Part shown: in pieces, positions 3,413-44,923 of the stretch
Position numbering within the stretch: the first letter of the stretch is position 1
Layout: each line of letters starts with the position of its first letter
Virus record (IMG/VR): IMGVR_UViG_3300031227_011131
Origin: a virus
Lineage: Duplodnaviria; Heunggongvirae; Uroviricota; Caudoviricetes
Direction: 5' to 3' (one strand)
Length of the DNA stretch: 64,000 nt
Program-made: the position numbers and the translations under genes
Notes under the pieces: model-generated
The model's database searches: none
What the model was told of the DNA's origin: nothing
Seen by the model: only the letters and a program-made list of their open reading frames with translations

Positions 3413-3486
3413 GGGAGCGTGACGGAACTGGCATACGTGGTCGGCTCAAACCCGGCATTTTGTGGGTTCGACTCCCACCGCTCCTA
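3413..3486 (+). tRNA. tRNA, anticodon read by eye as CAA, but class I (short variable arm), atypical
   Basis: Acceptor GGGAGCG/CGCTCCT, T-arm GTGGG-TTCGACT-CCCAC, anticodon stem GTCGG/CCGGC with loop CTCAAAC. The D-stem is only 3 bp. No CCA encoded. Confidence 0.45.
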
Positions 3487-6818: not shown

Positions 6819-7022
6819 TTGAGGAAAAAGACACAGTTGTTTTTTGTAGTGTTGAAACACAAGTATGGCGGCCCTGCTGCGATTGACCCTGATGGTTATG
6901 AGGCTTGGTATCAAGATGGTTTTTTACATAGGTTAGATGGCCCTGCTGTGATTTATTTAGATGGAATTCAAAAATGGTTTTTGAATGGGAAACAGGTAAC
7001 TCAGGAAGAGGTTGAGGGATGA
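6819..7022 (+). CDS. MORN-variant-like repeat protein, paralog 1
   Basis: Repeat units W(Y/F)xNGxLHRxDGPAVI. The stop overlaps the next start (ATGA). Confidence 0.5.
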   Translation: MRKKTQLFFVVLKHKYGGPAAIDPDGYEAWYQDGFLHRLDGPAVIYLDGIQKWFLNGKQVTQEEVEG

Positions 7023-8047: not shown

Positions 8048-8465
8048 ATGGCATTTGAATGGAAAAAGTGTAAAATGATGATAGAAAAAGAATCAGTTGT
8101 TTTTCACAGTGATGAAGCACAAAGATGGCGTAATAGAAATGGTGATTTGTATAGGGTTGATGGTCCGGCGTTGATTTTTTCTGATGGTACTCAGTATTGG
8201 TGTCGTAGTGGTGGCATCCTTCATAGGGATGGTGGTCCGGCTGTGATTGATTTTGATGGTTACGAGGCTTGGTATGTAAATGGTTTTTTTACATAGAGAT
8301 GATGGTCCAGCTGTTATTGATTCAGATGGAACTCAGCATTGGTATAAGAATGGTTTAAGACACAGGGATGATGGCCCGGCTATTACAAGATCAGATGGTA
8401 GTCAAGAATGGTTTAAGGATGGCGAGTATCATAGAGCAGATTGTCCAGCGCTAATTTCAAATTGA
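8048..8465 (+). pseudogene. MORN-variant-like repeat gene, paralogs 5/6, split by a +1 frameshift in a T7 homopolymer (about 8285-8292)
   Basis: ORF 8048-8296 and ORF 8280-8465 together form one continuous repeat protein (WYVNGF|LHRDDGPAVI) if one T is removed from GGTTTTTTTACAT. Confidence 0.45.
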
Positions 8466-11914: not shown

Positions 11915-11920
11915 TTTAAT

Positions 11921-12014
11921 GGATAGGTGGCCGAGTTTGGTCTAAGGCTCTGGTTTCGAAAATCAGTAGGCGGTGTCAAACACTGTCTCGTGGGTTCAAA
12001 TCCCACCCTATCCG
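11921..12014 (+). tRNA. tRNA-Ser (anticodon CGA), class II with a long variable arm
   Basis: Acceptor GGATAGG/CCTATCC, anticodon arm CTGGT-TTCGAAA-ATCAG, T-arm GTGGG-TTCAAAT-CCCAC. Confidence 0.65.
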
Positions 12015-12076
12015 TCAATGGTGGAGTTGTCTAAGAGGCTATTTGGTTTAGCAAGCAATTCAAAAAAGGGAACACA

Positions 12077-23418: not shown

Positions 23419-23434
23419 AGAATTGGATAGGTGG

Positions 23435-23518
23435 CTGAGTTTGGTCTAAGGCTCTGGTTTCGAAAATCAGTAGGCGGTGTCAAACACTGTCTCGTGGGTT
23501 CAAATCCCACCCTATCCG
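23435..23518 (+). tRNA. tRNA-Ser (anticodon CGA), second copy
   Basis: Identical to 11921-12014 except for 1 nt (GCCGAG vs GCTGAG). The duplication extends a few nt on each side. Confidence 0.65.
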
Positions 23519-23822
23519 CCAATGGAACAATGACGAATCCTGAATTAAGATAATGCCCCGCTCTTGGTATTTACATCAGAACCGCTTAGAATTCTGCCAG
23601 ACGCACATTCTCGCCTTACTAAATGTCTTGTCTTATTGACGAGTTTTGCAAACTTGTCTATTTGTACGTCGAATTTTGTCACAATTTTCTTATAGTTGGC
23701 CTTATGGGGTAGGGTTGGCCCGATTCACGTGAGAGTTGGGTCTGGATATTTAGCTATATTTTTTTGATATTTGCATCTTAGTGAGGGGATAGCAATGCGC
23801 ATTAGATTTTGAAAAGGGGATT

Positions 23823-32071: not shown

Positions 32072-33157
32072 ATGATGAATCCTTGGGTAATCGGCTGGGT
32101 TGCATCGGACGGTCATAATAATGGAGAAAGGTGGAGCGTATCGCAAAATTCAGATGACGCAGATGTTATGTGGATTATATACAACTTGTTTTCGGATGCG
32201 AAGATTTCTATATCGTGTGGAAACAAGGCAGGTCGTTACGGCACTAAGGATCAAGTAATAGTTTGTAGAAAATCATCTCGTGACTGTGAAATATTGGAAG
32301 AGTGGGGAATACAGGTTGGTAATAAGACAATCAGTCTTAGATTTCCTAACGGTAAGGAAAGAGGCGATATATGGATGTATCTTCGGGGAATGTTTGAAGG
32401 TGACGGCACTGCTTATTTAGAAAATGGCAGAAATCCGAGATTAGAAATTGTGTCCAGTAGGCTTTGGTGTAATGACTGTAAGAAATGGCTTGACGAGCAA
32501 AATATTGATGCGTCGGTTTATGACGAGAAGAGGTCGCATGGCATTGCGTATTTGAGAATTGGTAGCTCATCAGATGTGACGAAGTTCATTAGAGGCATTT
32601 ATGATGTCGAATCTGGGCAGCGTATGGGTCGTAAGTTCGGCATTTGTTCTAAGGTAATGATTGCAATGAATATCTTCGATATAGAAGCCAGAAACAATTT
32701 ATCATGTGACAAAAGAAACAGACTCAGGTCTTTGATAGAAAATGATGTGAGGGATGGCTTGTCTGCTGTTGAGATTTCTAGGAGGTTGAATTGTCCTTTA
32801 AGTTTTGCAATGAGGGTTAGACGTGAGCTTGTTGGTTCTCGCAAACAAATAAAACAAAAAAAGGCATCTGAAATTCATAATCTTCTGAAGGATGGAAGAA
32901 GCCGGGCCGACATCGTGCGTCTTGGATATGGATATAAGTTAGTTCGGCAGGTCGCAGATGAAACTGTTGGAAGCGTAAAGGAGAAACAAGAGAAGAAAGT
33001 GGCAGCCATAAGGGAAATGATATTAAAAGGAGAGAGTGTTAGTGGAATAGTAGATGCGGCTCAGTGTAGTGCTGGGCGTGTCATAAGGGAAAGACGATGG
33101 CTTGCTGAGCACGGTTACACAGTGAAGCTTAATAAGAGGAGAAGAAAGAATGAATGA
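32072..33157 (+). CDS. free-standing LAGLIDADG homing endonuclease with C-terminal HTH repeats
   Basis: VIGWVASDGH and LRGMFEGDGTA motifs. The likely start is MMNPW at 32072, after GGAGAG. Preceded by TGTATAAT. Confidence 0.6.
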   Translation: MMNPWVIGWVASDGHNNGERWSVSQNSDDADVMWIIYNLFSDAKISISCGNKAGRYGTKDQVIVCRKSSRDCEILEEWGIQVGNKTISLRFPNGKERGDIWMYLRGMFEGDGTAYLENGRNPRLEIVSSRLWCNDCKKWLDEQNIDASVYDEKRSHGIAYLRIGSSSDVTKFIRGIYDVESGQRMGRKFGICSKVMIAMNIFDIEARNNLSCDKRNRLRSLIENDVRDGLSAVEISRRLNCPLSFAMRVRRELVGSRKQIKQKKASEIHNLLKDGRSRADIVRLGYGYKLVRQVADETVGSVKEKQEKKVAAIREMILKGESVSGIVDAAQCSAGRVIRERRWLAEHGYTVKLNKRRRKNE

Positions 33158-34268
33158 TTGGAATAAGCCGTTGCCATGGTTGAATTTTACAGAACATTCA
33201 ATGGCTAACGAAATAAAGTTTGAAGGTGATAGTTTGAGGATAATGTTTGCTCCTCGTCTTGAGGGAAATGGCGTACATTCATTGCCTTCTGGAAGAGCGG
33301 CGGAAGTCGTACATTTAGACAGTCTTCCTGGTGCGCCGAGTGAATGGACTCGTGGTAGACATAGTTATGTCGTTCCAGTTGAGGTAGGCATAGGTATATG
33401 GTTTGATTGGCGCAATAAAGTATGGGGAACTATAAATCCCAACCTAACTTGTCTTTTGTCGATAAAAGGAATTAACCCAGTTACTGGACAAAAGATTGAA
33501 AGTTTACGGCTTGAGGAATATGTTGAGAACTGTCCTGTTCATAATGCACCGTTTGCTGGGCCGTATCGCCTATGTGAGAAATGTGGATACGAGTGGCCTC
33601 CGCAGAATCATGTGTGTCCAGACAATCCAGCATGGTGGGATGGTTTTCGGCAGCCTGATGGCAAGGTAAGACAGTTTTTCTTTTCTGACGAGGATGCTCG
33701 TGACATTGCGAGCATAGTGATTGGTAGGGAGAATACTGTTCCTGCATTTGGTTTTGCCTTTTACAAGCCCAAGAATCCACGTGCTTTGCTTAAAGCGGCG
33801 TTGCGTGGCGATGTGACATTGGGCAGTTTTGGCTTGATTGGCCCGATTGGCCTGATTGGCCCGATTGGCCTGATTGGCCCGACTGGCCCGACTGGCCCGA
33901 CTGGCCCGACTGGCCCTGTTGGCATATCATATTCGACAACTGTTTGTGGTTCTGAACTGGAGATTGGGGCGTCATTGGTTTTTAATGATGCTGGAATCAC
34001 ATCAGCAGAAAATTTTGTGAATGCTAGTTCTGATAAAGTTTTCCCGCAGAACAAAACCAAGAGTGTATCGGTAGGTGCTGGCGCTCAGATAACACAGCAG
34101 CTTACACAATGCAGTCTTGGAGTAGAAGGCTGGCAGGCCGAGCCAAGTGCCGTAATTAGGCTCTATTTCTGTTTTGAGCAACAGTTTAGGGAGATAGTAG
34201 AACGTGGAGGCGTAGTTGACTTGAAGGGCAACAGTGAAGGTTATTTAGCGGGAATGCCTACTGGATAA
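33150..34268 (+). CDS. collagen-like repeat (Gly-X-Y x~13) fibre protein
   Basis: GLIGPIGLIGPIGLIGPTGPTGPTGPTGPVG is encoded by a 9 bp tandem repeat at 33834-33915. Confidence 0.55.
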   Translation: MNDWNKPLPWLNFTEHSMANEIKFEGDSLRIMFAPRLEGNGVHSLPSGRAAEVVHLDSLPGAPSEWTRGRHSYVVPVEVGIGIWFDWRNKVWGTINPNLTCLLSIKGINPVTGQKIESLRLEEYVENCPVHNAPFAGPYRLCEKCGYEWPPQNHVCPDNPAWWDGFRQPDGKVRQFFFSDEDARDIASIVIGRENTVPAFGFAFYKPKNPRALLKAALRGDVTLGSFGLIGPIGLIGPIGLIGPTGPTGPTGPTGPVGISYSTTVCGSELEIGASLVFNDAGITSAENFVNASSDKVFPQNKTKSVSVGAGAQITQQLTQCSLGVEGWQAEPSAVIRLYFCFEQQFREIVERGGVVDLKGNSEGYLAGMPTG

Positions 34269-36462: not shown

Positions 36463-37476
36463 TTGAATTGGTGGGTAGAAATGAGAGTTGATGTCACAAC
36501 ACTTTCGGTTCTTATTGGTAGTCGGGCATGTAACGCCAAATGTCCGTTTTGTGTTTCCCAGATGACACCTGATTGTGGTATTGGTATTAAAGAGCCTGTC
36601 ATAAATTGGCGCAACTTTGACTTGTCCTGTAGATATGCTCAGAAGAATGATATTTCAACTGTTATGTTGACTGGTAAGGGCGAGCCTACACTTTTCCCGA
36701 ATCAGATTACTACTGTTCTTAGCGTATTGCGTGGCTATGATTTTCCTTTTAAGGAATTACAGACAAATGGCATAAAGTTGATGGAGGTTGAATACTGTTC
36801 TTAGCGTTTGCGGTCGTGGAGTTATTTTGGGCTAAACACGATTTCTATTTCGGTTGTGCATTGGAGCGATGATAGAAGTAAAGAAATCTATGGATTCGAC
36901 AACTACAATCTTGCGTCTTTGGTCAGGATTCTGCATAGCTACGGATTTTCAATTCGTCTATCTTGTGTGATGGTTAAAGGCTATGTTGATTCTTGGGACG
37001 TTGTAGATAGATTCCTGCACTTCTGTATGTCGAGAAACAGACTGAGGCGATTTGTTTTGTTGCTGTTACGCAGAATGGTCTTGCGCTTCAGCGTGTCAAG
37101 AAACGGACTGAGGCGATTTGTTTTGCTGCGATTACGCAGAATGGTCCTGCACTTCTGTCGTTGCAACAATGTAAAGCAATTCACATTGCGCGAGTTAGGG
37201 CGTTCTGACGAAACGAAAGACAAAGCTGTTTCGCAGTGGGTTTTGGAACATCATGTTTCTTCTGAAACCATTTATGGAATTGAGGTGATATTGAGGAAAA
37301 AGGGAACGGTTCTTTTGTCGCTTCCACATGGTGCAACGATATACGACCATGATGGTCAGAATGTATGTTTGACGAATTGTCTTACATTGCCGTTGAAGGA
37401 TGAGATTCGTCAGCTCATATTTCATCCTGATGGTCATTTGCGCTATGACTGGAAAGAAGGCGCAATTTTACTTTGA
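36463..37476 (+). pseudogene. radical-SAM enzyme (activase-like) interrupted by an in-frame TAG at 36802-36804; ORFs 36463-36804 and 36808-37476 share one frame
   Basis: The N-terminal part has CNAKCPFC (CX3CX2C) and LTGKGEPTL. The downstream part continues barrel-like strands. It also contains a 57 bp tandem duplication (RNRLRRFVLLLLRRMVL x2). Confidence 0.45.
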
Positions 37477-37503: not shown

Positions 37504-38733
37504 ATGGAAAGCAATTATTTTGGTGACTTCAAATTGCAAAGAAATTCTCAATCGATCAATGGCACTTTTTCGGATTTATTGATTGAGAACTTTGTTCTGT
37601 ATAAGATGCGTCAAAAAGTGACTACACATCGTTTCAGCATTTGTTTGTACAAACAGAACAGGGATTTATTATTTCCGACTATTGACCAGAGTATGACGAA
37701 TTGCGAATTATCGAGGACATTGGAGGATATTGAGGACGGGGCGCCTATTGAGAGTGGCAGAGACATTCTTGTTCGCGCAAAGTTTCTTGCTGCATTGGAT
37801 GCCATAGTTGAAGACATGAAGTGTGATGTGAAAGTGGTGTATACATCGCTTGACAGTGGTCTTTTGATTTTGGATGGTGATGACTTTGATAGTGCAAATA
37901 CTGTAGCAAGCATTGGGATTCGTAGTGACCACAACATTCAGTTGAGTATTGTGAGCACGGAATACAAGCAGGCAAGTGATGTTGTGTTCTTATTTGATGG
38001 GATAGACAATTGGTCTCATGTACGTAATGAGAGTAGTCAGATGGTTGTCGGAGTATGGTGGTCGGATCATTATGGCTGGTCTAGCCGAGAAGTACCTTTG
38101 GCTTGTGATAATTTTGACGCTTATTTGGATGCCAATTATTCAGACAAAGTGGCATCTTCTACTCGAACTTTGATAGATAGAGTAATTGGCGAGAAGTTGA
38201 TTGGCAAATTGGTATTGTGTCATGGCAATGCTGGCACTGGGAAGTCGTTTTGGATTCGTGGCTTGTCGGTAGCTTTGAAACAGAAGTATGATGTTGCCTA
38301 CATTTCGGAGTTTGAGAGCTTTTTGTCATCGGCTGCTGGCTATTATCAGGTGGTTGACGAAGATCGTCCTGTTGTTTTTGTTTTTGAGGATGCTGGTTGT
38401 GTTTTTGCTGTTGATGCTCAAAACAGATATGAGCAGCTTACCACAACACTTTTGAATTTGACTTCTGGTCTTATTTCGGCTGGTCGAAAAGACATTTTTG
38501 TTTTCACCTATAACGGTGCTATGGGTGATATGGACGAAGCAATGATTCGTCCCGGCAGGGCGTTGAGTGTTATAAAGTTTGGAGAATTAGATTCTTCAAA
38601 AGCCAATGCTTTTTTGAAAGCTCATGGGTCAGATGAGTGTGTTTGTTCTTCCATGCGATTGGCGGATTTGTATGCGATGATTTATGGTTTTGATGATGTT
38701 TTGAAGGAATCCAGAGGTGTTCTGGGTTTTTAA
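37504..38733 (+). CDS. AAA+ ATPase (MoxR/CbbX-like)
   Basis: Walker A GNAGTGKS and Walker B VFVFEDAG. Confidence 0.6.
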   Translation: MESNYFGDFKLQRNSQSINGTFSDLLIENFVLYKMRQKVTTHRFSICLYKQNRDLLFPTIDQSMTNCELSRTLEDIEDGAPIESGRDILVRAKFLAALDAIVEDMKCDVKVVYTSLDSGLLILDGDDFDSANTVASIGIRSDHNIQLSIVSTEYKQASDVVFLFDGIDNWSHVRNESSQMVVGVWWSDHYGWSSREVPLACDNFDAYLDANYSDKVASSTRTLIDRVIGEKLIGKLVLCHGNAGTGKSFWIRGLSVALKQKYDVAYISEFESFLSSAAGYYQVVDEDRPVVFVFEDAGCVFAVDAQNRYEQLTTTLLNLTSGLISAGRKDIFVFTYNGAMGDMDEAMIRPGRALSVIKFGELDSSKANAFLKAHGSDECVCSSMRLADLYAMIYGFDDVLKESRGVLGF

Positions 38734-43034: not shown

Positions 43035-43628
<594 letters not shown>

Positions 43629-44296: not shown

Positions 44297-44923
44297 ATGC
44301 GAAAAGAAACCAAGATTACGGCCAAGTTTCAAGAACAATGTTGTAGGCATTTGAAAGAGCGCAAACAGAAGTATCTTTGCGTAAGTCCATTGAATTGTGT
44401 GCACAATGTAAGGCATCGAGTGAAGCAGAAAGGGATGATAGGGTTTTGTGAGAATCCTATTATACTTGAGAAATCCAAACGACACGTTGTAGTATGCGAG
44501 GGTGATGTCACGGCTTCGGCTTGTTTTGAGTATGAATGTGTTCATACTACGGCAACTGTGGAATCTGATTTTCATGAGATTTTACGCAACCCAAGTCGTT
44601 GTGGGCAGGAGTATCCCAGGTTGGGGGCTTTGATATGGTGTTTGCAGGATGGCACTAATGGCAACGCAATAGGCGAAGCAATAGCTGATGCCATAGGTGA
44701 TGAAACAGATGGGCCTGATGCAATAGAGGACACAATAAAGGACACAATAGAGGACACAATAGAGGACACAATAGAGGACAATGCAGTAGTGCCTGATGCA
44801 ATAGAAGACGGAGCAATAGAAGCAATAGATTGTGAGATAGAGATTGAGAATATTGGGGCTAAAACACGATTAAAACGTTTAGCAGGATTATTGTGGAAGC
44901 TTGGAAGTTGTTCATGGTGGTGA
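44297..44923 (+). CDS. hypothetical protein with 12 bp tandem repeats (EDTI x4)
   Basis: gaggacacaata x4 at about 44735-44782. Confidence 0.35.
   Translation: MRKETKITAKFQEQCCRHLKERKQKYLCVSPLNCVHNVRHRVKQKGMIGFCENPIILEKSKRHVVVCEGDVTASACFEYECVHTTATVESDFHEILRNPSRCGQEYPRLGALIWCLQDGTNGNAIGEAIADAIGDETDGPDAIEDTIKDTIEDTIEDTIEDNAVVPDAIEDGAIEAIDCEIEIENIGAKTRLKRLAGLLWKLGSCSWW

Follow-up and report, generated by a model that had tools for sequence, protein, structure and literature searches.

A radical-SAM gene in the genome of an uncultivated phage is broken by a lone in-frame TAG and by a foreign insertion of 132 nt, and is probably a decaying, non-functional gene whose two lesions would have arisen independently by short-homology template switching. 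The window, by which we mean the whole stretch of 64,000 nucleotides that was analysed, corresponds to positions 102,889-166,888 of ENA contig k141_455309 (221,945 bp, assembled with MEGAHIT), an uncultivated phage-like contig of a large (jumbo) phage. The case is of an ordinary kind, that of a decaying accessory gene in a large phage, and it raises no new biological question; its instructive detail is the inserted segment, which is a fragment of a DUF4116 repeat-protein gene read out of frame. Automatic pipelines call two open reading frames (ORFs) at this locus and so miss both the enzyme and its decay.

The gene extends on the plus strand from ATG 36481, the probable start and the one used by the ENA, JGI and Logan gene callers, to a TGA at 37476. 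An earlier note, made from the window's letters, had described two same-frame ORFs parted by nothing but a TAG, together with a cluster motif and a glycine motif of the radical-SAM type, and this description is borne out. ORF 36463-36804 and ORF 36805-37476 lie in one plus-strand frame with TAG 36802-36804 as the sole separator, the CX3CX2C motif for the [4Fe-4S] cluster is present as CNAKCPFC (residues 17-24 from ATG 36481), and the SAM-binding motif is GKGEPTL. Both motifs belong to the N-terminal part of 107 codons (36481-36801), which aligns with residues 1-108 of homologues. The premature stop (36802-36804) occupies a variable helix position where homologues carry K, A, D, E or Y. It is followed by a middle part (36805-37026) that ends at the insertion point (...GYVDSWDVVDRF LHFC) and, beyond the insertion, by a C-terminal part (37159-37476; RCNNVKQFTLR ... 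IRQLIFHPDGHLRYDWKEGAILL, then TGA) that includes the invariant C-terminal motif of the family; both parts are on the plus strand and collinear with homologues. Apart from the two lesions the frame of 339 codons is clean, having no frameshift and no second stop.

The neighbours of the gene are a 125-aa ORF without a family, an AAA-type ATPase (37504-38733) and a DUF2201 VWA-like protein. Homologues of the radical-SAM gene are found in phage-like contigs and also as solitary bacterial genes, and no partner gene conserved beside them was found. A conserved pairing with the 125-aa gene was considered in a homologue-bearing phage-like contig and rejected, the two 125-aa proteins being unrelated. 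No GenBank phage matched the locus by megablast.

Homology spans the TAG. When the two ORFs are fused across it, the protein matches Pfam Radical_SAM (PF04055) over residues 14-171 with 32.3 bits against a gathering cut-off of 29.5; unfused, the N-terminal ORF scores 19.9 bits, below that cut-off, and the C-terminal ORF has no match. Searching 5.8 billion proteins yielded 1048 radical-SAM homologues, the best full-length ones being 286-298 aa long, 43-45% identical and covering 99-100% of the query. Among the 120 best homologues (286-349 aa, 98-100% query coverage) none is split. The 17 homologues that were aligned run straight through the TAG column and are collinear with the window protein everywhere except for one gap of 44 residues. 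End-to-end alignment with proteins of ~290 aa thus answers the question posed in the earlier note, whether homology would continue past the stop.

These proteins place the gene in an uncharacterised, MoaA/viperin-like radical-SAM family of ~290 aa. Its members (P0002-P0120) come from CPR/DPANN, other bacteria and phage-like contigs and are often auto-annotated as 'MoaA' or 'pyruvate formate-lyase activating enzyme'. The window copy aligns with them over the full length at 43-51% identity and shares with them CNAxCPFC, GKGEPTL, ELQTNG and RQLIF(F/H)PDGHLRYDW, and differs from them in having the TAG and the 44-codon foreign insert. It keeps 74 of the 80 near-invariant columns of the family, with IRQLIFHPDGHLRYDW present where the near-invariant C-terminal sequence is RQLIFFPDGHLRYDW, and departs at the other six; two of these changes are E to K in VEQLT and F to H in IFFPDGH. 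None of the named families fits: the NCBIfam models for MoaA, viperin, NrdG and QueE all miss their cut-offs by a wide margin, the model for MoaA (GTP 3',8-cyclase; TIGR02666) giving 34.4 bits against an equivalog cut-off of 284 and that for viperin and prokaryotic viperin (NF038283) 18.6 bits against 180. A structure model of one homologue (P0004; pLDDT 86, pTM 0.88) has MoaA and viperin as its nearest solved folds, at TM about 0.67-0.69 and 11-15% identity, and judged from this model the resemblance to viperin appears to be one of fold only.

The TAG lies within an exact repeat. A 15-nt string, TACTGTTCTTAGCGT, occurs at 36711 and at 36793 and has no further copy in the window. The earlier note had recognised this repeat, which is real, but had spaced the copies 83 nt apart; the spacing is 82 nt. 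A second-order Markov simulation gives an expectation of 0.04 such close 15-mer pairs in the whole 64-kb window, so the pair is not due to chance. Copy 1 (36711-36725, plus strand) reads (T)-T-V-L-S-V, is native and fits the family pattern 'QIT..L..L'. Copy 2 (36793-36807, plus strand) is shifted by one frame and reads Y-C-S-stop-R; its stop comes from a TTAG internal to the 15-nt string, which is harmless in the frame of copy 1. The repeat had been taken as the mark of a recent local duplication around the stop, yet nothing more than the 15-nt string is copied: homologues are collinear between the two copies, and the DNA there is therefore native. The simplest origin of the TAG would be a short templated change, by copy-choice or short-patch conversion from the upstream 15-nt copy, that wrote the stop into the gene. 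A plain point mutation in a pre-existing near-repeat could also have produced it. Elsewhere in the window, exact direct repeats of 15-16 nt are seen at 6925/7158 and 8024/8173, with spacings of 233 and 149 nt that are not multiples of 3; these pairs exceed the chance expectation by far, as does the 15-mer pair described here.

The second lesion is a tandem repeat at 37013-37158, with a period of 66 nt, 2.2 copies (TRF) and units that are 85% identical. Relative to all 17 aligned homologues it adds exactly 132 nt, or 44 codons, and the corresponding gap in the homologues sits between ...VDRF and LHFCRCNNVKQFTL. The insertion, on the plus strand, can be placed at 37027-37158 or, given the flanking 14-nt repeat, at 37013-37144, and consists of two 66-nt units. 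This flanking repeat, TCCTGCACTTCTGT, is present in identical left (37013-37026) and right (37145-37158) copies on the plus strand, the right one also coding for the native L-H-F-C. The earlier note had read the locus as a direct duplication of 57 bp; the period is instead 66 nt, and the repeat is a foreign insertion, not duplicated native sequence.

In the radical-SAM frame the insert reads MSRNRLRRFVLLLLRRMVLRFSVSRNGLRRFVLLRLRRMVLHFC (beginning SRNRLRRFVLLLLRRMVL...), and neither this gene-frame reading nor those of the reverse strand match any family. Two bases further along on the plus strand, a reading of 37011-37160 gives two 22-aa repeats of DUF4116 type, IPALLYVEKQTEAICFVAVTQNGLALQRVKKRTEAICFAAITQNGPALLS. 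With a 65-aa fragment in this alternative frame as query, PF13475 (DUF4116) is the sole Pfam match, at E=0.008 and 16.2 bits, below the gathering cut-off of 24.9. An exhaustive HMMER search of 1.84 billion representatives found 5355 proteins at E<=1e-3, of which 2035 reach E<=1e-10, the best at 2.9e-70; most of the alignments among those listed cover about residues 3-48 of the query. All seven of the top matches tested against PF13475 are strong DUF4116 members (95-139 bits). By BLASTP the reading is identical to one DUF4116 protein (P0165) at 30 of 46 positions (65%), ungapped, with E=8e-18, and aligns to it in several registers 22 residues apart. The insert has in common with DUF4116 proteins the 22-aa period, the consensus (QT.EIC..AV.QNG.AL.YV) and 57-65% ungapped identity to P0165; unlike them, it has two units only, lacks a start and lies inside the frame of another gene.

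From this reading of the sequence, the insert is best described as an out-of-frame fragment of a DUF4116 repeat-protein gene and not as a DUF4116 gene. Nor is the DUF4116 frame an overlapping gene, since it has no start codon and is closed by a TAG at 37008-37010. The Arg/Leu-rich peptide had been thought atypical for a radical-SAM barrel, and the oddity now has a plain explanation: the units are DUF4116 repeats two bases out of register, and reading them in the host frame yields the peptide as an artefact. Where an enzyme gene contains an odd stretch that looks of low complexity, the stretch can thus be a fragment of a repeat protein in the wrong frame, which is a caution for the annotation of phage 'auxiliary' genes. 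A structured RNA or intron in the insert was considered and rejected, as the segment folds no better than shuffled sequences (z = -0.5) and contains no Rfam family.

The borders of the insert suggest how it may have been acquired. Similarity to DUF4116 runs into the 14-mers on either side (ALLYV... and ...NGPAL), and TCCTGCACTTCTGT shares 10 of its 14 bases with TCTTGCGCTTCAGC, the inter-unit junction. A template switch or double exchange could have used one and the same 14-nt microhomology, TCCTGCACTTCTGT, on its way into and out of a DUF4116 tandem array, which would have shared this string with the native codons L-H-F-C of the radical-SAM gene. With entry and exit at one microhomology, only complete 22-codon units would be gained and the host frame would be preserved. 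The two units, with 10 mismatches over 66 positions, would therefore be units of the donor array that had diverged beforehand rather than a fresh duplication. Insertion of a transposon with a 14-nt target-site duplication is unlikely, because the 14-nt 'target' is itself repeat-like, resembling the inter-unit junction as described.

Templated mutation between nearby imperfect direct repeats and microhomology-mediated template switching are known mutational mechanisms. The locus resembles their products in its exact 14-15 nt repeats at the lesions, its integer number of donor units and its donor-like junction; it differs in that the mechanism is read here from the anatomy, neither donor nor intermediate having been recovered. 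The anatomy is nevertheless a clean, textbook-style one for short-homology template switching, with integer units, microhomology at the junction and a stop derived from a copied 15-mer. Searches for a donor DUF4116 gene came up empty in the window, across 16.6 kb of additional flank, and in IMG/VR, the JGI metagenome set and GTDB genomes. Three candidates, two from JGI metagenomes (L001, L002) and one from GTDB (L025), were rejected as chance matches that share only 20-25 nt.

Several repeat-protein genes are present in this phage. A 70-nt tandem unit (1.9 copies) at 8222-8356 may represent MORN-type repeats (HRDDGPAVIDSDGNQHWYKNG), which it looks like. A GAAGAC array of 13.7 copies lies inside an ORF at 43542-43623, and five copies of CAATAGAGGACA at 44721-44780 encode (IEDT)n in ORF 44297-44923.

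Mapped on the model of the homologue P0004, the TAG aligns to Tyr109, in helix 104-116, and the insert falls between residues 179 and 180 and splits helix 174-186. An uninterrupted ORF for a partial TIM barrel is therefore absent, as the gene has the TAG at 36802-36804 and a 44-codon foreign insert in a core helix. Several features speak against a pseudogene. The insert preserves the reading frame and introduces no stop in the host frame, and the clean frame and the 74 of 80 near-invariant residues kept imply that inactivation was recent, or else that the gene is still used. Of the two options that the earlier note had offered, a fresh pseudogene or a recoded stop, the first is supported and the second is not, for reasons given below.

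Recoding of TAG is not supported in this phage. Some crAss-like and Lak phages reassign TAG with a suppressor tRNA, and the present phage is like such stop-codon-recoded phages in having an in-frame TAG in a conserved gene, a large genome and many tRNAs; it is unlike them in that one gene is hit, TAG is a common terminator and no tRNA with a CUA anticodon is found in the 80.6 kb examined. These 80.6 kb consist of the 64-kb window and 16.6 kb of extra flank (L021, L023). ARAGORN and Rfam identified 10 tRNA genes there, tRNA cluster included, and none has a CUA anticodon: the nine in the window are Thr-UGU, Leu-CAA, Arg-UCU, Ile-GAU, Gln-UUG, Ser-CGA (two copies), Leu-UAA and Thr-CGU, one further Leu-CAA is in the upstream flank (L021), and the other flank (L023) has none. 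Among 96 called genes on three contig stretches, TAG terminates 26, TAA 32 and TGA 38. Treating TAG as a sense codon raises ORF coverage from 0.896 with the standard code to 0.924, and reading through the other TAG-ended ORFs extends them by 1-58 codons, with two exceptions that meet the ATG of the next gene immediately. No second TAG-interrupted gene occurs in the 80.6 kb; the SNF2 helicase, the intein-containing terminase and the portal with two inteins have no in-frame stop. The suppressor tRNA and the other in-frame TAGs in conserved genes that the earlier note had proposed to look for are thus both absent from these 80.6 kb, and what had looked like a lead towards stop-codon recoding is removed as false for this phage.

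The tRNA genes have peculiarities of their own. The two genes for tRNA-Ser(CGA), at 11920-12016 and 23425-23521, are 97 nt long, near-identical and 11.5 kb apart. Leucine tRNAs normally carry a long variable arm; the two tRNAs called Leu(CAA), at 3413-3486 and L021:798-874, are 74-77 nt long without such an arm, and their identity is uncertain. The nine tRNAs of the window form a dispersed cluster beside genes for RtcB, a Macro domain protein and a T4-type RNA ligase 1 (435-23521; L021 16277-20471), and together these look like a tRNA-repair set.

One alternative to gene decay is amber read-through of this single codon, whether by a suppressor tRNA of the phage or its host or by a near-cognate tRNA in the weak TAG-C context, to yield a full-length enzyme that tolerates the insert as a surface excursion. 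Homology resumes in frame directly past the TAG, the remaining frame is intact with its catalytic motifs kept, and the phage has many tRNA genes, the survey having covered 80.6 kb of the 221,945-bp contig. Against this stand the tRNA complement and stop usage just described and the uninterrupted state of terminase, portal and SNF2 helicase. Moreover, the product would still hold the Arg/Leu-rich insert, and since its 44 out-of-frame residues sit inside a core helix, a read-through product would also be disrupted. We regard read-through as unlikely. Other ways past the stop were rejected: programmed translational bypass of the T4 gene 60 type, which needs a non-coding gap between matched take-off and landing codons, would have nothing to skip, because the homologue alignment is ungapped to either side of the TAG, and for a programmed frameshift or bypass the alternative frames close within 13 codons, again with no gap left by homologues.

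Another alternative is that the locus is polymorphic and reversible, the insert and perhaps the TAG patch being present in part of the population, and recombination between the 14-nt repeats excising 132 nt to give an on/off variant. Excision would join TCCTGCACTTCTGT to CGTTGCAAC, a product collinear with homologues. Five shorter contigs from other samples all end at 36985-37117, at or inside the insert. In addition, a contig from sample ERZ27315525 (L013) reveals a second strain just downstream, with 22 differences in 37911-38091 (12%), inside the AAA-ATPase gene, and two further contigs (L014 and L015) start at 38105 and 38182, just to the right of this divergent patch; heterogeneity at the insert is therefore possible. 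To the right of the patch the second strain is almost identical to the window, and left-hand contigs stop at 36985-37009, a pattern suggestive of a ~1-kb mosaic stretch that takes in the 3' part of the radical-SAM gene.

Several observations weigh against a polymorphic locus, which we hold to be improbable. Among the proteins found, none represents an allele free of the insert or of the TAG, and the best full-length match is 43-45% identical. Contig ends are also not particular to the insert, as two other contigs (L007, L008) begin in a different tandem array at 33836-33916 and the contigs of these samples are short in general, which points to general fragmentation. Finally, the TAG would survive excision of the insert. 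The array at 33836-33916 consists of nine copies of a 9-nt unit (GATTGGCCC) that code for collagen-like G-P-I/T triplets in ORF 33126-34268. All five differences of L007 from the window fall in this array, so its units vary between samples.

A combination of these ideas, in which a DUF4116 array donates whole units via microhomology, the population is polymorphic, and the gene either toggles between dead and restorable states or is read through at the amber codon with the insert forming an Arg/Leu-rich helical hairpin, strikes us as very unlikely. Its polymorphic element derives from the contigs of five assemblies that stop at or inside the insert and from the second strain nearby.

It is extremely doubtful that the gene is naturally split, with a 107-aa N-terminal and a roughly 206-222-aa C-terminal product assembling into an active enzyme: gene callers do predict two ORFs, but all of the 120 best homologues are unsplit proteins, the TAG falls within a barrel helix, the insert would persist, and no ATG follows the TAG, the only candidate starts being a TTG that lies 20 nt after a GGAGG and a GTG that is internal and lacks a ribosome-binding site.

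An artefact of assembly or sequencing is essentially refuted, for although the window derives from a metagenome assembly (a MEGAHIT k141 contig) and tandem repeats are error-prone, the same TAG is found in seven contigs from three pipelines (ENA/MEGAHIT, JGI and Logan) and several runs, and the complete insert is identical in the ENA contig, a Logan contig (L005) and a JGI protein (P0121). The 107-aa, TAG-ended ORF is itself identical on these seven contigs, which are 99.85-100% identical to the window. TAG and insert, being identical in contigs from several samples, are thus not assembly errors. The contigs are all near-identical and therefore silent on selection.

Other genes of the phage genome are worth recording. 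Inteins (LAGLIDADG or Hint) are found in the large terminase, which has one, and in the portal, which has two (49761-52688, 56708-61069); another lies in a 761-aa protein just past the window (L023 18517-20802), and a free-standing LAGLIDADG ORF is located at about 32100-33157. A TnpB-like ORF with OrfB_IS605 and Cas12f1-like_TNB domains (45494-46696) resides inside the phage genome. Between the terminase and the portal region, at 52757-54709, is a gene for a 650-aa protein whose topoisomerase I domain (PF01028) is of the eukaryotic type.
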